From: Vicinamibacteria bacterium
Lineage (GTDB): Bacteria; Acidobacteriota; Vicinamibacteria; Marinacidobacterales; Marinacidobacteraceae
Reading direction: 5' to 3'
NCBI GenBank assembly: GCA_964291235.2
Contig: OZ219815.1
Location: 864,001-928,000, forward strand
Length of the DNA stretch: 64,000 nucleotides
The notes under the pieces were generated by a model, which saw only the letters and a list, made by a program, of their open reading frames with translations, was not told where the DNA came from and did no database searches. How positions within the stretch are numbered: the first letter of the stretch is position 1; every line of letters starts with the position of its first letter. Shown piece after piece: positions 23,817 through 34,731 of the stretch. The position numbers were made by a program, and so were the translations under genes.

Positions 23817-24848
23817 ATGGCATTGACGAACGCAAACAGTCCCAACGCCGGTTCCCAGCTGCGGGGTCCAGCCCCTCCGGGCCACTCCGGCGACGATTAC
23901 CAGGATCCCTTCCAGGGCGACCCGGGCCGGTCCGAGAGTTCCGCTGCCGCGGGCAACCGAGGCCTGTGGATCGCGCTGGTTCTGATCGTCGGGTTCATGA
24001 TCGGCGAGGTCACCGCCGGCTTCCTGGCGGGCAGCCTGATCCTCCTCGCCCACGCGGGACACATGCTTGCGGACGGCGTGTCCATCGGGATCGCCCTGGT
24101 GGCGATGCGCTTCTCGCCCCAGTCAGCGACGGTGGAGCGGACCTACGGTTTCCATCGCACGGAAGTCTTCGCCGCCCTCGTGAACGCGCTGGTGCTGTGG
24201 GGGATTTCCGTCGCGGTGCTCTTCGAGGGATACCGGCGTCTCTCCGACACTCCGGAAGTCCAGGGTGAACTCCTGCTGATCGTGGGATCGATCGGTCTCG
24301 TCGTGAACATCTCGGCTGTCTGGCTCCTGCACGGGCCGGCACAGCGGAACGTCACGGTCCAGGGTGTGGTGCAGCACATGATCACCGACCTGCTGGGGTC
24401 GGTTGCGGTGGTGGTCGCCGGGGTGCTCGTCTGGGCGTTCGGCTGGCAGGTGGCGGATCCCGTCCTGAGCCTGCTGATCGGGGTCCTGATCCTGGCGAGC
24501 ACCTGGCGCCTGCTGTCCAAGGTCGTGCAGGTCCTTCTGGAGGGCACTCCGGAACACATCGACGTGTACGCACTCTGCTACCAGATCGAGCAGTTGGAGG
24601 GCATCACGCTGATTCACGACGTGCATTGCTGGACCCTGGCTCCGGGATACGACGCGATGACCGCGCACATTCTGGTGGAACCCGACTCCGGGTCGGGTGA
24701 CGGCCGTGATTCCCTGCTGGACAGCATCAGGGACATTGCCTACAAGGAATTCAACATCCACCACATCACGATCCAGCTCGAAACCGCAGCCGGCCGCTGC
24801 CTCGAAGCTCACCACGTCGGCCACCTGATGGCTACCGCCCGCGACTAG
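23817..24848 (+). CDS. Cation diffusion facilitator (CzcD/ZitB-like)
   Basis: AGHMLAD, TYGFHRTE, HMITDLLGS, HDVHCW, HHITIQLE. Confidence 0.93.
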   Translation: MALTNANSPNAGSQLRGPAPPGHSGDDYQDPFQGDPGRSESSAAAGNRGLWIALVLIVGFMIGEVTAGFLAGSLILLAHAGHMLADGVSIGIALVAMRFSPQSATVERTYGFHRTEVFAALVNALVLWGISVAVLFEGYRRLSDTPEVQGELLLIVGSIGLVVNISAVWLLHGPAQRNVTVQGVVQHMITDLLGSVAVVVAGVLVWAFGWQVADPVLSLLIGVLILASTWRLLSKVVQVLLEGTPEHIDVYALCYQIEQLEGITLIHDVHCWTLAPGYDAMTAHILVEPDSGSGDGRDSLLDSIRDIAYKEFNIHHITIQLETAAGRCLEAHHVGHLMATARD

Positions 24849-24900
24849 GCGAACGGGTAGGCAGTGGCTCCTGAGGCCTAGTCAGCCGGAGGAGGGAGGA

Positions 24901-26166
24901 ATGCGAACGTCGGGTCCGCGAACGCTACTGGCTCTCGGCAGCCTTCTCCTGCTGCCGAACGCCGCCATCGGCCAGGAAGGCGTTCGTCGCGTGACTCTCG
25001 GCGAAGCTCTGCAGGAGTTCGTCGAGAACAGCCTCGCGTTGAAGATCGCCCGGTCGGAGGCCGCAGAGATCGCGGGGGCCGCGCGCCAGTCCCGGGTCTA
25101 TTCGAACCCGTCGCTCTCCTTCAGCCACGACGACCTCCACCACGACGACCCCGTGACCGGGACGGAGAGGTTCTGGGAACAGACCATCCAGTTCGTTCAG
25201 GAAGTCGAATGGCCCGCCCGCACCTCCGCGCGGCGCCGGGCGGCCACCCACACCATCAGCGCCAGCCGGGCCGGGCTGCGCGCCGAGTCGGTTGAGCTCG
25301 CCTTCGAGGTCCGCGAGGCCTACGCCGTGGCATGGTTTGCCGAGGAGGCGGAACGCACCGTAAGCGAGGCCGCCGAGGTGATCCGCAGGGTGGCGGAGGA
25401 CGCCGAGGCCCGCCTGGAGGCGGGAGACATCTCGGCCTACGAGACCCGCCGGCTACGCCTCGAGCGGGTACGAGCCGAGCAGGAGGTGGTGGACGCCGGA
25501 CTCCGGGCCCGCACCGCCCGAAGGCGTCTGGCCGCGCTCATCTCCCCCGGAACCGGAACGGAGGAGGTCGGTCCCTCGAACGGGCTTGATCGAATTCCAC
25601 CACCGGTGACCCGCGAAGCCGCGCTGGGCGCTCTCTCCGAGCGGCCGGATCTGGAAGCCGCGGCGCGAGAGCGGGACGCTGCCGAGGCCAGTGTGGAGGT
25701 AGCCAGTTTCGCCATGAGACCCGCCCCGGCCGTCGGCGTCGGATACCGGCATCATCTGGACGGATTCGCCGGCGCCGCTCTGAGCCTCGATGTGCCCCTG
25801 CCGGTGTTCGACAGGGGAAGGGGGACACAGGAGGAGGCGGCCGCCCGGAGTTCCGCGGCCGCCTATCGGCTGGATCTGAGGCGACGGCTGGCCGAGTACG
25901 ATCTGGTGGGCGCTGCGGATCACTACGCAGCCGGGCGGGCCCGCGTCGAAGCGGCGGTGGACGGGCTGCTGGCGGACGGCGAATTCGTCCTGTCCTCCGC
26001 GACCGCGGCGTATGCCGAGAACGAAATGACCCTGGTCGAACTGCTCGACGCGGCCGACGCGTTTCAGGGGGCCCGGCTCACGGCGCTGTCGCTGCAGTCC
26101 GACGCCTGGATCGGCTATTTCGACCTGCTTCGCGCCATGGGAAGGGGCTCGGAGGAGCAACCATGA
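24901..26166 (+). CDS. TolC/CzcC family outer membrane efflux protein
   Basis: Signal peptide, helical OEP repeats, VPLPVFDRGRG, MTLVELLDA. Confidence 0.9.
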   Translation: MRTSGPRTLLALGSLLLLPNAAIGQEGVRRVTLGEALQEFVENSLALKIARSEAAEIAGAARQSRVYSNPSLSFSHDDLHHDDPVTGTERFWEQTIQFVQEVEWPARTSARRRAATHTISASRAGLRAESVELAFEVREAYAVAWFAEEAERTVSEAAEVIRRVAEDAEARLEAGDISAYETRRLRLERVRAEQEVVDAGLRARTARRRLAALISPGTGTEEVGPSNGLDRIPPPVTREAALGALSERPDLEAAARERDAAEASVEVASFAMRPAPAVGVGYRHHLDGFAGAALSLDVPLPVFDRGRGTQEEAAARSSAAAYRLDLRRRLAEYDLVGAADHYAAGRARVEAAVDGLLADGEFVLSSATAAYAENEMTLVELLDAADAFQGARLTALSLQSDAWIGYFDLLRAMGRGSEEQP

Positions 26167-27890
26167 CCGCCCGTGGAAAAAGCGCCCCGCATCATCACGC
26201 CTTAGCAGCCGGTGGAGACCCGGTTCCCTTCGAGGTCCCGGGAATGTGGGGCGCTTTCCCCACGGGACGGCGGAACGAAGCGCCGCGGGCGCTGGGTGGC
26301 GTCCCGCGGGGAATGCAACGAACCGCCGTTCACGGGTGGCTGCTCGCTTCGCTGATGAGCCTCGGGCTGGCAGGTTGCGGCGGCGCCGGGGAGGAGAGCG
26401 ACGCCGCTGTCTCGGCGCACGATCCCCACCCCGGCGGAGGACAGTTCACCGCGCGGTCCGGAGACATCGAGCTGTTCGCCCTGTACCCGCACCAGATCGT
26501 GGGCACCGAGAGCGAAGAGACCTGGGAGATCCACCTGACCTGGGTGGAAAGCTGGCAGCCGGTCGAGGACGCCAGGGTGACGCTCAACATGGTCGGGCCG
26601 ACCCGCACGGAGCGGCAGCTGGCCGCCCAGCCGGGCGTCCCGGGCGTGTATCTCGCGGTGCCCACGCTGCCGACCATCGGAACCTGGCGGGCTGCGTTTG
26701 CGGTGTCGGCCGACGGCCGGGAATACGCATTCGAGGCTCAGCCGTTCGAGGTTTTCGAGAGCGAGGAAGGGGTCGATCCGCATGCCGGGCATGACCATGA
26801 CGACCATGAGGGGCACGGCCTGCCGGGAGACGTGCACGAAGACGAGCCCGACGCGGGGCTGATCACCCTGGCCGTGGAAGAACAGTGGTCCATTCCTTTT
26901 GCGGTCGCCACCGCCGAGGAACGCGAAATCCCGGCCTCGTTTCCGGCCGCCGGTGAACTGGTAGCTCCCCCCGGAGGTCTCGTACACGTATCCGCCCCGG
27001 TCGCGGGACTCGTGCAGGTGGATGGCCCCCCGCTGGGACCCGGTGATTTCGTGCGGGCCGGGCAGGTTCTGGCTCTGATTGCACCCGTCCGCCTGGACAA
27101 CTCGTACGAGCGCACTCAGGCGGACGTGGCGGCGGCGCAACTCGAGGCCGAAAGGGCCGAGCGCCTTCTTGAGGCGGGCGCCATTCCCGCGCGCCGCCTG
27201 GAGGACGCGCGCCGTGAGCTCGCGGTCGCGGTCGCGGCCTTCGAAGCCATCCGGGGAGGCACGCCGGGAAACGTCGGTGATGACAATGCCGCTTCCGACC
27301 TCTACCGCGTGCGGAGCCCCATTGACGGGATGATCGCGGTCCGTGACGCCGCGCTCGGCGAGCAGGCGGAAGTGGGGGAACATTTCTTCACGATCGTGAA
27401 CACCACGACGCTCTGGTTCGTCGCCCGGGTTCCCGCCCGCTACGCGGCGGAAACCGGCCGGATCCGGGGCGCGTGGTTCACCGTCGAGGGAGGCGCGAGC
27501 CCCTACACGGTGAGCCGGGTGCTGTCCGTCGGCAGCATGATCGACCCGGAAAGCCGCACCCTCCCGGTCCGGTTCGCCGTCCCGAATTCCGACCGGGCCC
27601 TGAAGGTGGGGATGCTGGCGGAAGGACAGATCCTCATTGGCGATGCGGTGCGAGGCGCGGCGGTCCCAACCTCCGCGATCCAGGACGAGAACGGTCTCTC
27701 CGTCATCTACGTCAAGGTCACCGGAGACATGTTCGATCGCCGCGTAGTGGACATCGGCGCGTCGGACGGATCATGGACGCTGGTCGCCTCGGGGCTCGAA
27801 CTCGGGGAGCAGGTGGTCACCGAAGGGGCGTACCAGGTCAATCTGGCCGCCCTGGGCACCATCGAACCGTCCCATGGCCACGCTCACTGA
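26163..27890 (+). CDS. RND efflux periplasmic adaptor (CzcB/CusB-like) with His-rich linker
   Basis: Lipobox LAGC, HAGHDHDDHEGH, RSPIDG, IDPESRT, LKVGML, C-terminal HGHAH. True start may be downstream. Confidence 0.9.
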   Translation: MTARGKSAPHHHALAAGGDPVPFEVPGMWGAFPTGRRNEAPRALGGVPRGMQRTAVHGWLLASLMSLGLAGCGGAGEESDAAVSAHDPHPGGGQFTARSGDIELFALYPHQIVGTESEETWEIHLTWVESWQPVEDARVTLNMVGPTRTERQLAAQPGVPGVYLAVPTLPTIGTWRAAFAVSADGREYAFEAQPFEVFESEEGVDPHAGHDHDDHEGHGLPGDVHEDEPDAGLITLAVEEQWSIPFAVATAEEREIPASFPAAGELVAPPGGLVHVSAPVAGLVQVDGPPLGPGDFVRAGQVLALIAPVRLDNSYERTQADVAAAQLEAERAERLLEAGAIPARRLEDARRELAVAVAAFEAIRGGTPGNVGDDNAASDLYRVRSPIDGMIAVRDAALGEQAEVGEHFFTIVNTTTLWFVARVPARYAAETGRIRGAWFTVEGGASPYTVSRVLSVGSMIDPESRTLPVRFAVPNSDRALKVGMLAEGQILIGDAVRGAAVPTSAIQDENGLSVIYVKVTGDMFDRRVVDIGASDGSWTLVASGLELGEQVVTEGAYQVNLAALGTIEPSHGHAH

Positions 27891-27900
27891 CGGATCCGCC

Positions 27901-30900
27901 ATGGGTGGATCCGAACAGCGGGGCTTTCTCGACCACTTCGTCAGCGCTTCCCTCAAGAACCCCTTCCTGGCGCTCATCCTCGCCATGGGCCTCTTCGTGG
28001 GCGGCAGCTGGATCGCCGCCACGTTCCCGGTCGATGTCTTCCCCGACCTGACGGCTCCGACCGTCACGGTGTTGACCGATGCGCAGGGGCTGGCGCCGGA
28101 GGATGTCGAGGTAGCGATCACCTTCCCGATCGAAACGGCGCTGAACGGGGCGCTGGGGGTGCGGCGGGTCCGCTCGAGATCCGCCCACGGGATCAGCATT
28201 GTCTGGGCCGACTTCGAGTGGGGAACGGACATCTTCCTCGCCCGGCAGATCGTGAGCGCCCGATTGCAGGCGCAGGCGCTGGATCTTCCGGAAGGCGTGG
28301 ACCCGCCTGTGCTCGCGCCCGTCAGTTCGATCATGGGCGAGATCATGCTGGTCGGCTTGAGTGCGCCCGAACCGCGGCTCATGGAGGTCCGCACCCTGGC
28401 GGACTGGGTGGTGCGCCGCCGGCTGCTGGCGGTGCCGGGCGTCTCGCAGGTGATCTCCCAGGGCGGCGATGTCCGCGAATACCAGGTCCTGATCCATCCG
28501 CAGCGCCTGCTGGCCTACGAGGTGGGGCTCGAGGACGTGCTCGCCGCCACCGCGGGATCCAGCGAGAACGTGTCCGGAGGCCTCTACTGGACGAGCGGGC
28601 GTGAGGTTCTGGTTCGCGGGATCGTGCGCCCCGGCAATGCCGAAGACATCGCCCGGACCGTGGTGACGACGAGGGAGGGAATCCCGGTCCTGATCGAGGA
28701 TCTCGCGGACGTGCAGGTGGGTCCCAAGATCACCTACGGAACGGGGTCCGTGAACGCGGAACCCGCGGTGATCCTCTCGATCCAGAAACAGGCCGGAGCC
28801 AACACCCTGGAACTCACGGAGCGGGTAGAAGCCGAACTGGACCAGATCGAGGCCGTCCTCCCGGAGGGGATCACCCTGGAACGGGAGATCTTCCGGCAGG
28901 CGGACTTCATCTCGCTCGCGGTGGACAACGTGATCCTCGCGCTCCGTGACGGCGCCCTGTTCGTCATCGCCACGCTGCTGTTCTTCCTCTGGAACGTGCG
29001 CACGACCCTGATCTCGGTGGTCGCGATTCCCCTATCGCTCGCTCTCGCGATCATCGTGATGCGTGCTCTCGGCGGCACGGTGAACACCATGACGCTGGGC
29101 GGGATGGCGATCGCGATCGGGGCCCTCGTTGACGACGCGATCATCTTCGCCGAGAACGTCCATCGCCGCCTCCGTGACAACCGCCGGCGGCCGCGCGGTG
29201 AGCGCAGCGCCCCGCTGTCCATCATCAGCGGCGCCGCCAGCGAGATCCGGGATCCGATCCTCAATGCGACGTTGATCATCACGATCGTCTTCGTGCCGCT
29301 GTTCTTCCTTACCGGCGTGGAAGGGCGGATGCTCAAGCCCCTCGGCGAGGCGTACATCATCAGCATCCTGTCGTCGCTGTTCATCGCCGTGACCGTGACC
29401 CCGGCGCTGTGCTATCTGCTGCTCCCGAACGACCGCTCGATACGGCGCCAACGCGAACCGTGGCTGGTCCGCGGACTCGAGTTCCTCTACCGGTGGGTGC
29501 TCGACTGGGCGCTCCTCCGGTCCGGGAAGATGCTTCTCGCGTCGGCGCTGCTGCTGGCCGGGACGCTGGCGGTCGTTCCCACGCTGGGCCGGGAGTTTCT
29601 GCCGGAATTTCAGGAGGGCTCGCTGACGATCGCGATCATCGGAGTACCGGGTACCTCGCTCGACGAGTCCGACGAGACCGGCAGACGCGTGGAACGGAGG
29701 CTGCTACAGGTCCCGGGGGTGGTTTCGACGGCGCGGCGCACCGGCCGCGCCGAACTGGATGAGGAGGCGCAGGGCGCCAACGTCTCGCACGTGGAAGCCC
29801 AACTGGATCTCACCGGCCGGGAACTCGCCGCGGTCATGGCCGAGGTCCGCGAGCATCTTGCGGGGATTCCCGGAACCAGCATCACGGTGGGACAGCCGAT
29901 CGGCCACCGCATCGATCACATGCTTTCCGGGACGCGCGCCGCGATCGCGATCAGCATCTTCGGACCCGATCTGCGGGAACTGCGCAACATCGCGGGCCAG
30001 ATTGAGGCCATCGCCCACGACGTCCAGGGTCTCGTGGACGTCTCCGCGGAGCAGCAGGCCGAGGTGCCTCAGTTGCAGGTCCGGGCGAACCGCCGGGCTA
30101 TGGCCCGCTACGGCGTCACTCCCGGACACCTTGCGCAAGCCGTCAACGTCGCGATTCAGGGCGAGGCCGTTTCCATCGTGCGGGAGGGGGAGCGGACGTT
30201 CGATCTCCTGGTGCGCTACGCCGACGAGTACCGCACCGACCCGGAAGCCATCGGCAGCGCGCTGATGGCAACCCCCGCCGGGCCGATCGTGCCCTTGTCA
30301 CAACTCGCTTCCATCGTGAGGGCCATGGGACCGAACATGATCACGCGAGAAAACGTCCAGCGAAAGATCGTGGTCAGCGCCAACGTGGCGGAGCGCGACG
30401 TCATCGGGGCCGTCACCGAGCTTCAGGATCGGGTCGCGGCCGGACTGGACCTTCCGCCCGAGTACTTCCTCCAGTACGGAGGCCAGTTCGAGAGCGGCGA
30501 AGCTGCCAGCCGCCGCATCACCATTCTGTCGCTGTTCTCGGTCGGGGCGATCTTTCTGATCATGTTCCGCGCGTTCGGAAGCTTCCGGACGGCCATGTTC
30601 CTCATGGTGAATCTGCCGCTGGCCCTGACGGGCGGCATTGCCGCCGTCCTGCTGATCGGCGGCACCGTGAATGTCGCCACGCTGGTCGGCTTCATAACCC
30701 TGTTCGGAATCGCGGTCCGGAACGGGATGCTCCTCGTGAGCCGGTACCAGGACCTGTGCGCGGGCGGGATGCCGCTCCCCGAGGCCATCCGGCAGGGCTC
30801 GGTGGAACGTCTGAGCCCCATTCTGATGACCGCCCTGACCGCAGGCCTCGCCCTCATCCCGCTCGCGCTGGGGATCGGCGAACCGGGGAAGGAAATCCAG

Positions 30901-31038
30901 GCGCCACTTGCGGTCGTCGTCCTCGGCGGCCTGACCACCTCGACCGTGCTCAACATGATCGTCGTTCCGGCCCTGTTCCTGCGATACGGGCGAATGACGG
31001 TCGGAACCCCGTCCGAGACGCCGCAGCTTCCGGGATAG
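27901..31038 (+). CDS. CusA/CzcA family heavy-metal RND efflux permease
   Basis: VDVFPDL, MTLGGMAIAIGALVDDA, VGFITLFGIAVRNG, RLSPILMTA. Confidence 0.96.
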   Translation: MGGSEQRGFLDHFVSASLKNPFLALILAMGLFVGGSWIAATFPVDVFPDLTAPTVTVLTDAQGLAPEDVEVAITFPIETALNGALGVRRVRSRSAHGISIVWADFEWGTDIFLARQIVSARLQAQALDLPEGVDPPVLAPVSSIMGEIMLVGLSAPEPRLMEVRTLADWVVRRRLLAVPGVSQVISQGGDVREYQVLIHPQRLLAYEVGLEDVLAATAGSSENVSGGLYWTSGREVLVRGIVRPGNAEDIARTVVTTREGIPVLIEDLADVQVGPKITYGTGSVNAEPAVILSIQKQAGANTLELTERVEAELDQIEAVLPEGITLEREIFRQADFISLAVDNVILALRDGALFVIATLLFFLWNVRTTLISVVAIPLSLALAIIVMRALGGTVNTMTLGGMAIAIGALVDDAIIFAENVHRRLRDNRRRPRGERSAPLSIISGAASEIRDPILNATLIITIVFVPLFFLTGVEGRMLKPLGEAYIISILSSLFIAVTVTPALCYLLLPNDRSIRRQREPWLVRGLEFLYRWVLDWALLRSGKMLLASALLLAGTLAVVPTLGREFLPEFQEGSLTIAIIGVPGTSLDESDETGRRVERRLLQVPGVVSTARRTGRAELDEEAQGANVSHVEAQLDLTGRELAAVMAEVREHLAGIPGTSITVGQPIGHRIDHMLSGTRAAIAISIFGPDLRELRNIAGQIEAIAHDVQGLVDVSAEQQAEVPQLQVRANRRAMARYGVTPGHLAQAVNVAIQGEAVSIVREGERTFDLLVRYADEYRTDPEAIGSALMATPAGPIVPLSQLASIVRAMGPNMITRENVQRKIVVSANVAERDVIGAVTELQDRVAAGLDLPPEYFLQYGGQFESGEAASRRITILSLFSVGAIFLIMFRAFGSFRTAMFLMVNLPLALTGGIAAVLLIGGTVNVATLVGFITLFGIAVRNGMLLVSRYQDLCAGGMPLPEAIRQGSVERLSPILMTALTAGLALIPLALGIGEPGKEIQAPLAVVVLGGLTTSTVLNMIVVPALFLRYGRMTVGTPSETPQLPG

Positions 31039-31089: not shown

Positions 31090-31111
31090 CGGGGGTTTTG
31101 CCACAGGCTGC
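31090..31111. repeat. Solo MITE right end
   Basis: CGGGGGTTTTGCCACAGGCTGC is identical to 23362-23383. Confidence 0.8.
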
Positions 31112-32418
31112 TACGGGGTTCCAAGCTTGCGAAAGCGCTGGCGGTGGGTCCGGACGGTCATTGGCGTGCGGGCGCCGTCACGGAGCACGCCGAGCTCAAC
31201 CTCGTCCCCGGCGGAGACGTTCAGCCGCAGATAGACGAGACAGTCCGAGACCTCCGGGTCCGCCTCGACCCCGTCCACGGAGTAGATGACATCTCCGGCC
31301 CGGAGGTCGTGGAGCTTGAGCACCCCGGCGCGGGGGTTGACGCGGGTGACCTCACAGGCGAAGCCTTCGGGATCGAAGCCGAGGTCGCGCTTCCTCGCGT
31401 CGGCGAGCGGAGCGGTGGTCACGTGGGTCTGGGGATCGATCGACCAGAAACGGTGGGCGATGTCCGAAACCCACCACTGCGCCGGCAGTTCGATCGAGAG
31501 ATCAACCGGCCCGACCCCGGTTCGCTCGACGGTCAGGGAGAGGTGCGTGGCGGCCCGATCCAGACCGTCGTGGACGTAGAGCAGGTCGCCGAACGTCAGG
31601 ACCCGTTTCCCGGAGAAGTTCACGATGGCGTCGCCGGGGAGCAGTCCGGCGGCCATGGCCGCTCCCTCGGCGCGCTCGACCACGAGGCCCCGCGGCACCT
31701 CGAGGTGGATGCCGAGGTTCCGAATGTCGGGCGAGCGGAACATCTCTTGCCGCTTGTCCAGCGTTCCCTCCCGCTCCCTCGCGGCGGCCCGGTAGTCCCC
31801 GATCATGTGGCATTCGACGCAGCGCCCCCGCTGCAGTTGCTGCTCGCGCAAGCGCTGCAGGTCGCCGGGGAAGAAAGGCGGCGGCCGCCGAGGCGCCGGC
31901 AACTCCCCGGCGAGCCATCGCTCGTGCTCTCCGAGGCCCGCCCGGAGCGCGAGCGCGAAGCTGTCGAGATCCAGGTACGAGTCGGCCGAGACCGCGTCGC
32001 GTCCGCCGTAGCGCAGGTAGATCTGCTCGTCCGGACTGACGATGAAGAAGTAGATGGAGTGATGCCAATCGAAGTCGTAGAGGCCGACGTCGATGGGACG
32101 CATGTTCGTGATGCGGGCGCGGACGAAGCGTTCGAGCAGACGTCCCCTCTCGGAATCTCGCGGCGACAGCACAACCTGTGCGTCGAATCGTCGGCCGGTG
32201 ATTCAGGGCGAGCAGCGGAATTCGACCAGTAACGGCCGTCCCGTCTCTTTCGCCAGCGCCAGCGCCTGCTCGTAGTTGCTCAGCCATTCGAGAGTGTCGT
32301 CCTCGAGCGGCTGTCCCCCGGCCGCCGCCGAGTGTCCCGGACCGCTCAGCCCGACGAACAGGCCGGCAGCAGCGAGGAGCAGGGCGCCGGGGCCTCTGAC
32401 CGATGTGTGTTGTTGCAT
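31111..32418 (-). CDS. Secreted thioredoxin-like/PDZ selenoprotein (C69-S-P-U72) with CxxCH motif
   Basis: ORFs 32203-32445 and 31111-32172 are in one frame, separated only by TGA at 32203-32205. Read-through gives LLVEFRCSP-U-ITGRRFDAQVVLS. SECIS-like hairpin follows; CVECH and two PDZ-like repeats lie downstream. Confidence 0.88.
32164..32185 (-). promoter_or_regulatory. Bacterial SECIS element
   Basis: CGAC-GCACA-GGU-UGUGC-U-GUCG hairpin at +18 to +39 after the UGA, with a GGU apical loop and one bulged U. Confidence 0.78.
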
Positions 32419-32513
32419 GGCAGTCCTTCCAGGTGCGGCACCCATCCCTGGCGGCGCGCCACCGGAGGCACCCCGATCAGCAGAAACGGAAAGCAGTTTC
32501 TCGGTGCGGCGCC

Positions 32514-32575: not shown

Positions 32576-33136
32576 CTAGTCCTCCGAACTCCCTACCACC
32601 GCAAGGGACCCGGGATCGACGGATGGTCCGTCGCCGCGCGTCACCGGGACGCGGAGGGCGTCCACCATCGCGCACAACCGGTCGGTACAGGCCTGCGCAT
32701 CCACCTGGACCCAGCTCCCGGGATCCGCGCGCACGACGCGGGCCGCGAAGAACGAACGGTCTTCGAAGCCCCAGGTGTACCAGCGGAGGTCGGGCTGAGA
32801 GAGTTCGGTCGGGCTCGTCTGGCGCCAGGGCTTCGCCAATTCGATCCCGGGTGAAGGGGTGATGCGCGTCGGCAACTCGGTGTCGGGGGTGGCCTTCCCG
32901 GTCACCTCTCTCGCGCGTTCCACATTGTCCATCGCGTAGGTGTGCCAGCCGGGCTCGTGCCAGACATCGACAATGAGCCAGTCGCCCTCGATCCGCGCCG
33001 CGTAGCTCGCCGCGAAGGTGTCGCCCAGCCAGACCTCCTGGCGTGCCGGTTCTCCGGTTTCCTGAGCGGCGGCGGTTGCTGCGATGCCGGCGAGCATCAG
33101 CACCGCCAACGCGTTTGCGGGGATCAGGTCTCTCAT
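32576..33136 (-). CDS. Secreted DsbD N-terminal-like domain protein
   Basis: Signal peptide, HEPGWHTYA motif, C-terminal QACTDRLC Cys pair as in the DsbD-alpha fold. Confidence 0.7.
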   Translation of the reverse strand: MRDLIPANALAVLMLAGIAATAAAQETGEPARQEVWLGDTFAASYAARIEGDWLIVDVWHEPGWHTYAMDNVERAREVTGKATPDTELPTRITPSPGIELAKPWRQTSPTELSQPDLRWYTWGFEDRSFFAARVVRADPGSWVQVDAQACTDRLCAMVDALRVPVTRGDGPSVDPGSLAVVGSSED

Positions 33137-33331: not shown

Positions 33332-33934
33332 ATGCTCGACATCGCCGTCATCGAGGAACCGGTCGCCGCCGCGCTGACGCTGGACCCGAAGCGGGCCCGG
33401 CTGCTCGCGGAAATGGCGGAACCGGTGTCGGCCGCGACCCTGGCGGCCCGGGTCGGCCTCCCCCGCCAGAAGGTCAACTACCACGTGCGCACCCTCGAGA
33501 AACACGGGCTCGCGCGGGTCGTGGAAGAACGCCGTTGGGGCGGGCTGACCGAACGGCGGCTGGTGGCGACCGCCCGCTCCTACGTGGTGAGTCCGGCGGC
33601 CCTCGGCCCGCTGGCCAGCGACCCCGGACGGACGCGGGACCGGCTGTCCGCCGGCTACCTGATCGCCCTCGCCGCCCGCGTCGTGCGTGAGCTCAGTCAA
33701 TTCCTGCGGCGCGCCACCGAGACCGGCAAGCGGCTCGCCACCCTCTCGATCGATACCGAGGTCCGGTTCTCCTCCCCGGAGGCCCGGGCCCGGTTCAGCA
33801 GCGAACTCGTCGGCGCGATCACGGAACTCGTCCGGCGCTACCACGACGAATCCGTTCCCGGGGGGCGCAGCCACCGACTGGTGGTCGTCGCCTATCCGGC
33901 TCCGGCGGGCACTTCCGCCAAGGAAACATCATGA
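33332..33934 (+). CDS. ArsR-like winged HTH transcriptional regulator
   Basis: SAATLAARVGLPRQKVNYHVRTLEKHGL HTH. Translationally coupled to the SRPBCC gene. Confidence 0.9.
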   Translation: MLDIAVIEEPVAAALTLDPKRARLLAEMAEPVSAATLAARVGLPRQKVNYHVRTLEKHGLARVVEERRWGGLTERRLVATARSYVVSPAALGPLASDPGRTRDRLSAGYLIALAARVVRELSQFLRRATETGKRLATLSIDTEVRFSSPEARARFSSELVGAITELVRRYHDESVPGGRSHRLVVVAYPAPAGTSAKETS

Positions 33935-34731
33935 GCATCAAGCACGATCCATCCGGCCGCCGCTCGATCCAGGTCGAAGCCGAGGTCCCCGGCACGCCCG
34001 AGGAGGTGTGGGAGGCCATCGCCACCGGCCCCGGCATCGGTTCCTGGTTCTACCCGACCGACGTCGAGGAACGCGTCGGCGGCAGCCTCGCCTACCACAC
34101 CGGTTCCGAAATGGACCACATTCCGGCGAAGGTGACCGCCTGGGATCCGCCCCGGCGTTTCCGCCACGAGGGGAAGGACTGCGGAGCGGAGGGGCCGCCG
34201 ACCGCCACCGAGTGGACCATCGAGCCGCGCGCCGGGGGCCGCTGCCTCGTCCGCGTGGTGCACAGCCTGTTCGCGAGCACGGACGACTGGGACGACCAGC
34301 TCGAGAACTTCGAGAACGGATGGCCCCAGGCGCTCGCCATTCTGCGGCTCTACCTCACCCACTTCCGCGGTCAGCGCGCCACCATCGTCCGGGCCTACGG
34401 CGCCTTCGACGGTTCGGTGGAGGACTCCTGGAATGCCCTCCTCGCCACGCTCGATACCGGCGGGCTCGCACCTGGCGACCCCTGGGCGCTCCCCGATTCC
34501 GACGCCGGCAGCCTCGCGGGGGTTCTCGATGAACTCCGGCCCGAGGGCCTCCAGCCCTGCGTGCTGGTCCGCCTCGACCGGCCGGCGCCGGGCATCGCGG
34601 CGGCGTGCGCCTACAAGATCGCGGAGCGGGCGACCGTGGTCCTCAGCGTCTACTACTACGGCGACGAGGGGCCGGCGGCGGCCGGCGACGCCGCCGGATG
34701 GCAGGCCTGGATCGCGGCGCGCTTTCCGTAG
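33931..34731 (+). CDS. SRPBCC/AHSA1 domain protein
   Basis: PGTPEEVWEAIATGPGIGSWF, AWDPPRRF, GWPQAL. Confidence 0.88.
   Translation: MSIKHDPSGRRSIQVEAEVPGTPEEVWEAIATGPGIGSWFYPTDVEERVGGSLAYHTGSEMDHIPAKVTAWDPPRRFRHEGKDCGAEGPPTATEWTIEPRAGGRCLVRVVHSLFASTDDWDDQLENFENGWPQALAILRLYLTHFRGQRATIVRAYGAFDGSVEDSWNALLATLDTGGLAPGDPWALPDSDAGSLAGVLDELRPEGLQPCVLVRLDRPAPGIAAACAYKIAERATVVLSVYYYGDEGPAAAGDAAGWQAWIAARFP

Follow-up and report, generated by a model that had tools for sequence, protein, structure and literature searches.

A Trx7/PDZ selenoprotein gene with a candidate SECIS hairpin and a DsbD-alpha-like partner gene in a Vicinamibacteria bacterium

Locus organization and domain architecture

The window, meaning the whole 64,000-nucleotide stretch of contig OZ219815.1 from a Vicinamibacteria bacterium that was analyzed, carries on its minus strand a predicted gene for a Trx7/PDZ selenoprotein and a neighboring gene for a smaller exported protein, here termed the partner (Table 1). 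Two table-11 open reading frames, 32203..32445 (80 amino acids, with a product ending ...VEFRCSP) and 31111..32172 (353 amino acids), share a single minus-strand frame, and if the TGA between them is read as U, translation from the ATG at 32418 runs through to a single product of 435 residues and meets no further in-frame stop. The list of open reading frames and the translation both agree with the initial annotation, which had described one frame interrupted by one TGA at 32203-32205. The start codon placement is matched in the alignment of relatives, where L056, L059, and L060 begin at the equivalent MQQ/MQD. The N terminus, MQQHTSVRGPGALLLAAAGLFVGLSGPGHSAAA, has by eye the appearance of a Sec-type signal peptide, and residues 1-30 are disordered in the AF2 model with pLDDT <50. 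The AF2 model of the read-through product as a whole shows one compact protein (pLDDT 90.3, pTM 0.86).

Table 1. Features of the selenoprotein and partner genes, in window coordinates
Feature	Position	Strand	Evidence
Predicted Trx7/PDZ selenoprotein gene	31111..32418	minus	435 codons and TAG stop; GGAAGGA precedes ATG 32418
Probable signal peptide, about residues 1-33	32320..32418	minus	inspection of sequence; AF2 pLDDT
Thioredoxin-fold domain, DsbD-gamma-like, about residues 44-170	31909..32289	minus	Pfam Thioredoxin_7; VIA
UGA codon 72 in C69-S-P-U72, predicted to be read as Sec	32203..32205	minus	TGA/Cys alternation; Sec machinery
Putative SECIS hairpin (4-bp lower stem, bulged U, 5-bp upper stem)	32164..32185	minus	covariation, synonymous entropy
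GGU apical loop of the hairpin	32176-32174	minus	sequence
C200-V-E-C203-H204 motif, start of helix 203-217	31807..31821	minus	alignment; AF2 model
PDZ domain 1, about residues 234-320	31459..31719	minus	Pfam PDZ_6; VIA
PDZ domain 2, about residues 328-428	31135..31437	minus	Pfam PDZ_2; VIA
Partner gene, 186-amino acid exported DsbD-alpha-like protein	32576..33136	minus	predicted fold; conserved adjacency
Partner C150-x4-C155 motif	32672..32689	minus	invariant in 60 aligned partners

The read-through product matches the NCBIfam model NF041199, "Trx7/PDZ domain-containing (seleno)protein", with 377.3 bits (E 7.8e-113; curated cut-off 300), residues 44-423 aligning to profile positions 2-389 of 390, and the family named in the initial annotation exists and includes this protein. 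The Pfam models PF13899, PF17820, and PF13180 are matched, with Thioredoxin_7 at residues 44-103 and PDZ at residues 250-299 and 370-422, and the AF2 model and its VIA alignments contain one Trx fold and two PDZ folds, in keeping with the two PDZ-like repeats first noticed by inspection and now assigned to PDZ_6 and PDZ_2. The closest VIA matches of the Trx domain are 3f9u_B (Z 13.8), 2lst (Z 12.0), and 1vrs_D (cDsbD, Z 9.1), the best of these being a DsbD-gamma-like domain related to cytochrome c biogenesis. For PDZ domain 1 the VIA matches include the PDZ of MamP, a heme protein (4jj0_A, Z 11.4), and MucP PDZ1 (Z 9.8), and for PDZ domain 2 they include Deg2 (4fln_A, Z 10.5). The protein shares with the NF041199 family the CxxU motif, the Trx7 domain, the two PDZ domains, and the alternation of Sec and Cys.

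Members are spread over Acidobacteriota, Planctomycetota, Verrucomicrobiota, Poribacteria, and other phyla, and they include two distinct subfamilies. That of the window protein (C-V-E-C-H, IYLRYGGRD) is 22-30% identical to a Cys-rich subfamily (C-x-H-C-H, YGRYGTR), which outscores the window protein on NF041199 with 412-426 bits. Review tables list a "PDZ domain-containing protein (pfam13899, CxxU)" and a "Trx7/PDZ domain-containing protein" (PMC9312934, PMC13188914), and the selenoprotein tables in these publications trace the Trx7/PDZ family to a 2008 paper. Going by the table entries, Zhang and Gladyshev 2008 (PMC2398784) probably described this family under the name "putative secreted serine protease MucD". 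Because of the NF041199 match and the listing in published tables, the protein is assigned by sequence to a known kind of selenoprotein, the already catalogued Trx7/PDZ family, and its putative selenoprotein identity is not new. In the parts of these publications that describe the Trx7/PDZ family, neither a partner gene nor a CxxCH motif is mentioned.

The in-frame UGA codon and the downstream hairpin

Among 80 related loci from several phyla, the codon at the Sec position is TGA in 77, TGC in two, and TGT in one. Among the proteins recorded in databases, 119 of the 120 listed homologues stop just after the TGA position and the sole full-length protein (P0054) has Cys in place of U72; the homologous residue is Cys and not Trp, both in P0054 and in the three loci with Cys codons. 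The genome encodes the Sec machinery, with matches to selA (498 bits), selB (286/311 bits), and selD (250 bits), all above their cut-offs, and a tRNA-Sec of 69.7 bits, also above its cut-off, that ARAGORN calls as tRNA-SeC with anticodon TCA. The TGA is found unchanged and with no differing letter in contigs of three samples from one study, possibly the origin of this DNA, and in one contig from a second study, which argues against a read error. Among the public sequencing runs, none containing the stretch is listed as an RNA run. Comparison across the relatives shows UGA codon 72 to be a predicted selenocysteine codon, and the exported CxxU selenoprotein with a Trx7 domain and two PDZ domains proposed in the initial annotation is upheld by the Pfam domains, the Sec machinery, and the TGA/Cys alternation.

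A nonsense mutation or an assembly error, leaving a pseudogene or two separate genes, would fit with the splitting of the locus by standard gene callers and with an additional non-TGA in-frame stop in one relative (L068). This explanation is very improbable and is contradicted by the comparative data, as TGA occupies the same codon in nearly all loci across phyla with the frame intact on either side, a conserved hairpin follows downstream in a genome that has the Sec machinery, independent contigs agree on the TGA, and AF2 folds the read-through product as a single compact protein. Reassignment of TGA throughout the genome, for example to Trp or Gly and with no local recoding, has nothing more than the open frame in its favor and is of negligible probability given that homologues carry Cys and neither Trp nor Gly, that the tRNA-Sec has the anticodon TCA, and that TGA terminates four of the 12 Pfam-supported or conserved genes around the locus in the window and 62 of the 80 family open reading frames in relatives. 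The selenoprotein call matters chiefly for annotation. The gene is recorded as a fragment here, split into two table-11 frames as had been anticipated, and in all but one of the listed homologues just past the TGA, and such fragment records hide the predicted active site of a protein that occurs in several phyla.

The hairpin CGAC-GCACA-GGU-UGUGC-U-GUCG extends over 32185-32164, at +18 to +39 after the UGA, with the position, sequence, and GGU loop claimed for it from inspection. The bSECISearch rules describe a stem-loop close 3' of the UGA with a G in the apical loop. The E. coli fdhF-type SECIS is likewise directly 3' of the UGA within the coding region, with a short GU-containing loop that begins with G and a bulged U in the stem, and differs in its sequence and in the spacing, the distance from UGA to stem being 18 nt here. 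The energy of the hairpin is -10.0 kcal/mol in context, and in the isolated 22-mer it is the minimum-energy fold (-9.5 kcal/mol). Pair probabilities are 0.02-0.18, being low because a competing GC-rich fold exists, and the folding energy of the SECIS region compared with shuffles gives z-scores of -0.11 and -0.45 that do not distinguish the hairpin. The minimum-energy fold of the region has another pairing, with 74.5% of cells paired, a value reached by 147 of 500 shuffles, and was rejected as the functional structure because its pairing is not conserved in the alignment.

Folding energies by themselves leave the hairpin indistinct. The support for it beyond chance is comparative. In the alignment of relatives 92.5% of the hairpin cells are paired compared with at most 53% in slid controls, and none of 500 shuffles reaches this value. 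Pair 27-48 switches between U-A (35 sequences) and C-G (21 sequences), and RNAalifold keeps the 4-bp core. Codons 80-86 form the window of least synonymous variation in the gene, with a normalized synonymous entropy of 0.26 where 188 other columns average 0.75, and the hairpin stretch differs in the three forms with a Cys codon. By this comparison, the hairpin is shown to be a putative SelB-type SECIS that is selected at the RNA level. A search of the region against Rfam with E values up to 10 returned only a chance match (whalefall-1, E 9.5), and the promoter and terminator scan gave no signal above shuffle expectation.

The adjacent DsbD-alpha-like partner

The partner gene is 158 nt upstream of the selenoprotein gene on the same strand. 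This neighboring gene does not appear in the initial annotation. In 76 of the 82 loci examined the partner adjoins on the same strand or is fused, and its position relative to the selenoprotein gene varies, being upstream, downstream, or within the same polypeptide. No partner lies within about 6 kb of the gene in four loci with full flanks (L059, L060, L087, and L115). The long open frames upstream in L053, L054, L057, and L061 were considered as N-terminal fusions and rejected, the partner being in a different frame according to the L053 coordinates. A wider operon was sought in 13 loci (82 open reading frames), and no neighbor besides the partner is conserved. On the sequence evidence, the one new point is the nearly constant association of the predicted selenoprotein gene with the partner gene, by adjacency or by fusion. 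Neither this pairing and fusion nor the invariant CxxCH was found in the literature searched. Gene order and the fusions suggest that the selenoprotein and the partner bind one another.

Across 60 aligned partner sequences Cys-150, Cys-155, Trp-64, His-65, Asp-70, Asn-71, Arg-74, Trp-104, and Gln-148 are invariant. The partner's match to Pfam PF11412 (DsbD_N) spans profile positions 11-111 of 119 and, at 19.4 bits (E 1.1e-3), does not reach the gathering score of 25. With the same model, the C-terminal extensions in the fusion proteins P0122 and P0125 give 19.2 and 14.4 bits, respectively. NCBIfam has no model for the partner protein. The AF2 model of the partner has a pLDDT of 88.8, and with it the top 13 matches listed by Foldseek are all nDsbD or ScsB-N, with target-normalized TM scores of 0.60-0.70 for nDsbD and 0.36 for the longer ScsB-N chain. 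The corresponding VIA Z scores are 11.2 (ScsB-N), 9.8 (nDsbD), and 8.1, the next unrelated match being at 6.8. The predicted fold of the partner is the Ig-like fold of DsbD-alpha and ScsB-N. Because the DsbD_N score is sub-threshold and the PDB-sequence profile search with the partner alignment found no DsbD, the relation to DsbD rests on the predicted fold, and the protein is termed DsbD-alpha-like rather than a DsbD_N member because its score is below the gathering threshold. The pair Cys-150 and Cys-155 we take to be candidate equivalents of DsbD Cys-103 and Cys-109, the redox Cys pair near the C-terminal strands.

The CxxCH motif and a candidate periplasmic relay

The CVECH motif noted at the outset is present at residues 200-204 (31821-31807), and Cys-200, Cys-203, and His-204 are invariant in 81 aligned sequences, including those of the Cys subfamily at 22-30% identity. 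Heme c sites typically have a His immediately following the second Cys, which zinc and disulfide motifs seldom do. One reading, raised in the initial annotation, is that the motif carries covalent heme c and couples selenol/thiol chemistry to one-electron transfer, for which the odds are placed somewhat below even. Besides the invariance, it is favored by the predicted export of the protein, by two Cytochrom_C_asm (PF01578) matches in the genome (130.9 and 102.5 bits), indicating a cytochrome c maturation system, by the likeness of PDZ domain 1 to that of MamP, and by magnetochrome (PF18509, E 0.1) being the best Pfam match of the segment. The magnetochrome score of 12.7 bits is, however, far under the cut-off of 30.4 and the match spans the motif alone, and no cytochrome family scores above threshold in the CxxCH region. 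The Foldseek and VIA lists likewise contain no cytochrome, with residues 176-233 barely covered. No distal ligand is invariant, His-165 being only nearly so, and the C-x-H-C-H of the distant subfamily also resembles oxidizing CxHC disulfide motifs.

The other reading, tentatively held and not quite an even chance, is that the motif is a second redox disulfide or a metal (Zn/Cu/Fe) site served by the Trx CxxU, with no heme, analogous to the reduction of apocytochrome CxxCH by CcmG and ResA. Cys-200 is placed three residues before helix 203-217 and Cys-203 is its first residue, which is the usual setting of a redox CxxC and counts for this reading, as does the best structural match of the Trx domain, the DsbD-gamma-like domain related to cytochrome c biogenesis. 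The pair in the window also sits among metal-efflux and ArsR-type genes, but this context is absent as a conserved feature in 13 other loci and is accordingly treated as local. The strict invariance of His-204 is not accounted for by a simple disulfide. In either case the strictly invariant CxxCH provides a second testable handle on the Trx7/PDZ family.

Known systems resemble the selenoprotein in part. MamP and MamE of magnetotactic bacteria are also exported and also combine PDZ with a short CxxCH segment, but the segment precedes the PDZ domains here and follows PDZ in MamP/MamE, the NCBIfam MamP model gives 17.1 bits against a cut-off of 300, the magnetochrome score is similarly below its threshold, and the selenoprotein has no conserved upstream His of the P-H-x-G-x-C-x-x-C-H type found in magnetochromes. 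The CcmG/ResA/TlpA reductases share an exported Trx-fold reductase associated with a CxxCH motif, whereas in the selenoprotein the CxxCH is within the same polypeptide and the Trx domain is of the Thioredoxin_7/DsbD-gamma type and not TlpA/AhpC-TSA. DsbD-alpha is the electron donor of CcmG.

The closest parallel to the pair as a whole is in the periplasmic domains of DsbD, the Trx-fold gamma domain (cDsbD) and the Ig-like alpha domain (nDsbD), whose complex is described in PDB code 1VRS. Structural alignment pairs the Trx domain of the selenoprotein with cDsbD-like domains (Z 13.8 and 9.1) and the partner model with nDsbD and ScsB-N (Z 9.8 and 11.2). Each protein has a conserved Cys (or predicted Sec) pair, and the two are encoded together or fused. 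A point against the relay is that neither protein has a transmembrane DsbD/CcdA domain and none is encoded in the neighborhood, the only DsbD_TM (PF02683) match in the genome being located ~750 kb away. The other differences are that the second Cys is replaced by a predicted Sec, the partner has a Cx4C pair and a sub-threshold Pfam score, and the selenoprotein adds two PDZ domains and the CxxCH.

From the likeness of the Trx domain to the DsbD C-terminal domain and from the DsbD-alpha-like partner, we infer a periplasmic thiol/selenol-disulfide relay as the most probable mechanism. The best explanation of the locus, with a probability of roughly 0.85, is a Sec-containing Trx7/PDZ protein with a SECIS that takes part in a relay with its DsbD-alpha-like partner. 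In this relay the DsbD-gamma-like Trx domain, with Cys-69 and Sec-72 forming a selenenylsulfide/thiol-selenol center, would exchange electrons with the Cx4C pair of the partner, so that the two proteins would act like the two periplasmic domains of DsbD without a membrane-embedded part. Peptide substrates, or else the partner, are probably bound by the two PDZ domains, and the invariant CxxCH would constitute a third center, either a covalent heme c or a second redox or metal site. The pairing and fusion with the partner give a family without an assigned function a testable relay hypothesis modeled on the periplasmic half of DsbD.

An extension of the relay, considered unlikely, is that the pair forms a free-standing periplasmic redox module without membrane DsbD, in which a CxxCH heme links the selenenylsulfide center to the soluble cytochrome c pool and the module could form or break disulfides, or reduce sulfur, selenium, or metal species, in envelope substrates captured by the PDZ domains. 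One-electron carriers would then serve as the electron sink or source.

Reading frame and selenocysteine codon

The two ORFs delimited by the ORF caller share one frame interrupted by a single TGA, and reading this TGA as U gives a single product of 435 residues with one U, at residue 72 in the motif C69-S-P-U72, and zero other stops. GGAAGGA precedes the start codon, the ATG at 32418, which is equivalent to the start in the close relatives L056, L059 and L060. The observation in the initial annotation is correct in each detail, from the joined frame and the hairpin to the CVECH motif (residues 200-204) and the two PDZ domains, which Pfam identifies together with a Thioredoxin_7 domain.

Features of the selenoprotein locus (window coordinates)
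Feature	Position	Strand	Remarks
Selenoprotein gene	31111..32418	-	435 codons
In-frame TGA	32203..32205	-	codon 72
80-aa ORF	32203..32445	-	ORF caller; ends ...LLVEFRCSP
353-aa ORF	31111..32172	-	ORF caller; frame shared with the 80-aa ORF
SECIS hairpin	32185-32164	-	+18 to +39 after UGA; 4-bp lower stem, bulged U, 5-bp upper stem, GGU loop
Partner ORF	32576-33136	-	186 aa; signal-peptide-like N terminus; upstream of the selenoprotein gene
CDF cation-efflux gene, CusCBA/Czc-type RND efflux operon, and divergent ArsR/SmtB-type regulator with AHSA1/SRPBCC protein	23817-31038 and 33332-34731	+	flank the pair; RND operon: OEP, HlyD/CusB-like protein with YtkA-like domain, AcrB-type pump

The product matches the NCBIfam model NF041199, 'Trx7/PDZ domain-containing (seleno)protein', over almost its entire length with 377.3 bits (curated cut-off 300), and the main initial reading of an exported Trx7/PDZ selenoprotein is upheld by this match and by comparison at the TGA. 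The gene therefore belongs to a known, curated selenoprotein family and is ordinary as a discovery. The family is tabulated in two reviews, one of which, PMC9312934, enters it in its selenoprotein table as 'PDZ domain-containing protein, pfam13899, CxxU'; both cite Zhang and Gladyshev 2008 (PMC2398784), which describes a 'putative secreted serine protease MucD' family of 2 Sec and 12 Cys sequences with a CxxU motif and shows a SECIS for it. From the rows of the review tables and from PMC9402790, this 'MucD' would be the Trx7/PDZ family.

Five lines of evidence identify the TGA as a predicted selenocysteine codon: the homologues, the related loci, the nucleotide conservation downstream, the pairing of the hairpin, and the Sec machinery together with a standard code. 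Among the database matches listed, 119 of 120 homologues are fragments starting just past the TGA position; P0054 alone is full-length, and its residue at that position is Cys (RCAPCINGR). Across 80 related loci, taken from one-genome-per-species contigs, this codon is TGA 77 times, TGC twice and TGT once, so the proposed alignment of homologues returns Cys in P0054 and three loci and TGA in the other 77. These loci are mostly from Acidobacteriota, with others from Planctomycetota, Verrucomicrobiota, Poribacteria, Hydrogenedentota, KSB1, Nitrospirales and bins labelled Acidimicrobiia. The Sec machinery sought is all present in the genome, with selA (498 bits), selB (286 bits, 311 including the C-terminal part), selD (250 bits) and tRNA-Sec (69.7 bits, anticodon TCA). 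Of 12 genes near the locus, 4 use TGA as their normal stop, as do 62 of 80 family ORFs, and the code is therefore standard overall. As for an error at the TGA, it is covered with zero differences by contigs of one study (three samples, possibly the source of this DNA) and by one contig of a second study. No public RNA runs holding the stretch are listed.

Among 301 sampled genomes of the phylum, whose negatives include three unpublished genomes, only this genome and one other (G110) contain the family, with one TGA each. A locus from Thermoanaerobaculia (L068) has an extra in-frame non-TGA stop ~414 nt past the Sec codon (locus position ~6580), directly after C-I-E-C-H-M-I-G-D-Y with the frame beyond still intact, perhaps through a recent nonsense mutation or through misassembly. 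In one Bryobacterales genome (L082:4480-5856, +) selA (SelA 417 bits) lies directly upstream of the Trx7/PDZ gene. The selD of the genome occupies the C-terminal half of a longer ORF of 778 aa (L011:220-2556, +; ~G000:C1:1306478-1308814), whose N-terminal half is a pyridine nucleotide-disulfide oxidoreductase domain (Pyr_redox_2, 109 bits), and is a fused SelD; such fusions have previously been reported. The 2827-aa protein P0246 matches the query in 23 stretches (best, query residues 122-166) and may be a large protein whose repeats derive from part of the Trx7 domain.

Conservation of the SECIS hairpin

The alignment shows a conserved hairpin by which the UGA is predicted to be recoded locally. 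The stretch GACGCACAGGTTGTGCTGTC downstream of the TGA is near-invariant in the TGA forms, synonymous sites included, and the three Cys forms have not retained it. Computed over 74 distinct TGA forms, the normalised synonymous-codon entropy of codons 80-86 is 0.26 compared with a mean of 0.75 over 188 other conserved columns, and residues 76 to 89 hold all six lowest-entropy 7-column windows of the whole gene. The pairing first proposed is kept in 92.5% of cells compared with at most 53% in slid controls, a level reached by 0 of 500 shuffles, and the pair between the wobble bases of Phe78 and Ser85 is U-A in 35 rows, C-G in 21, U-G in 3 and unpaired in 12. RNAalifold retains a 4-bp core with an AGGUU loop and nothing more. 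The hairpin has an energy of -10.0 kcal/mol in context; folding energy by itself does not mark it (z -0.11 and -0.45; pair probabilities 0.02-0.18), and Rfam has zero matching models for the region. The minimum-energy fold that competes with it in this GC-rich stretch is not conserved, its 74.5% pairing being attained by 147 of 500 shuffles.

Domain structure and the CxxCH motif

The AlphaFold2 model (81-row alignment) is compact, with a pLDDT of 90.3 and a pTM of 0.86. Residues 39-175 form a thioredoxin fold best matched by 3f9u_B, a DsbD-gamma-like 'cytochrome c biogenesis-related' C-terminal domain (Z 13.8, rmsd 2.4, 118 aligned), and also resembling cDsbD of the nDsbD-cDsbD complex (1vrs_D, Z 9.1). 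PDZ folds follow at residues 232-325 and 328-429 (MamP 4jj0_A, Z 11.4; Deg2, Z 10.5), and the Foldseek matches listed include the PDZ tandems of DegQ, DegP and RseP; residues 176-233, with the CxxCH, are scarcely covered in either fold-search list.

Cys-200, Cys-203 and His-204 are invariant in 81 of 81 aligned sequences, including a 22-30% identical subfamily with C-x-H-C-H, and this strict invariance is a useful addition beyond family membership. Helix 203-217 of the model starts at Cys-203. Given export of the protein and the presence of cytochrome c assembly genes in the genome, covalent heme is possible at this motif, and the assignment is a tentative one at somewhat under even odds: its lone family hint is a magnetochrome domain (E 0.1), essentially the motif itself, and zero distal ligands are invariant among the aligned sequences. 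The CxxCH would fit a redox disulfide or a metal site equally well.

The DsbD-alpha-like partner and gene neighborhood

The conserved DsbD-alpha-like partner is a new point and suggests how the Trx7/PDZ family works; no mention of the pairing was found in the literature searched, passages of the selenoprotein reviews included. The partner adjoins the selenoprotein gene on the same strand in 76 of 82 loci by tblastn (80 related loci, the window and L023, a repeat of L065), lying upstream in 10 (the window and its close relatives), fused in 2 of the 82 and downstream in the remaining adjacent loci, mostly 0-231 nt away. It is missing within ~6 kb in L059, L060, L087 and L115, and L102 and L121 end at the selenoprotein gene, so it could not show there. 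A partner-type domain forms a C-terminal extension in the family members P0122 (606 aa) and P0125 and in the Cys forms L112 and L120. At L101:7176-7520 the partner aligns over 115 residues only and then diverges, which may reflect a frameshift in the MAG.

The partner scores 19.4 bits against Pfam DsbD_N, below the threshold of 25, covering profile positions 11-111 of 119, and no NCBIfam model covers it. Trp-64, His-65, Asp-70, Asn-71, Arg-74, Trp-104, Gln-148, Cys-150 and Cys-155 are invariant in 60 aligned partners. Its AF2 model (pLDDT 88.8) has nDsbD or ScsB-N as the top 13 rows among the Foldseek matches listed (best E 3.1e-5), with target-normalised TM of 0.60-0.70 for nDsbD rows and 0.36 for the longer ScsB-N chain, and VIA aligns it with ScsB-N and two nDsbD entries at Z 11.2, 9.8 and 8.1 compared with 6.8 for unrelated folds.

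Beyond the family membership, domain architecture, gene pairing and fusions established here, the Trx CxxU center and the Cx4C of the partner would exchange disulfide or selenenylsulfide in the manner of cDsbD and nDsbD. Escherichia coli nDsbD takes electrons from cDsbD and passes them on to clients with a Trx fold, CcmG among them, and because it both receives and donates, either electron direction is possible. There is no membrane DsbD/CcdA gene near the locus, and the single DsbD_TM match in the genome is ~750 kb away.

No neighbor other than the partner is conserved in 13 diverse loci, and the metal-efflux and ArsR genes on either side of the pair are therefore local context. In the Verrucomicrobiota, at L112:3004-7704 and L120:2475-7824, genes for a TonB-dependent receptor and an EF-hand protein precede the Cys forms fused to the DsbD-alpha-like domain, and at L115:7206-8072 an EF-hand protein follows the Sec form in which no partner was found. 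These arrangements may represent a lineage-specific operon.
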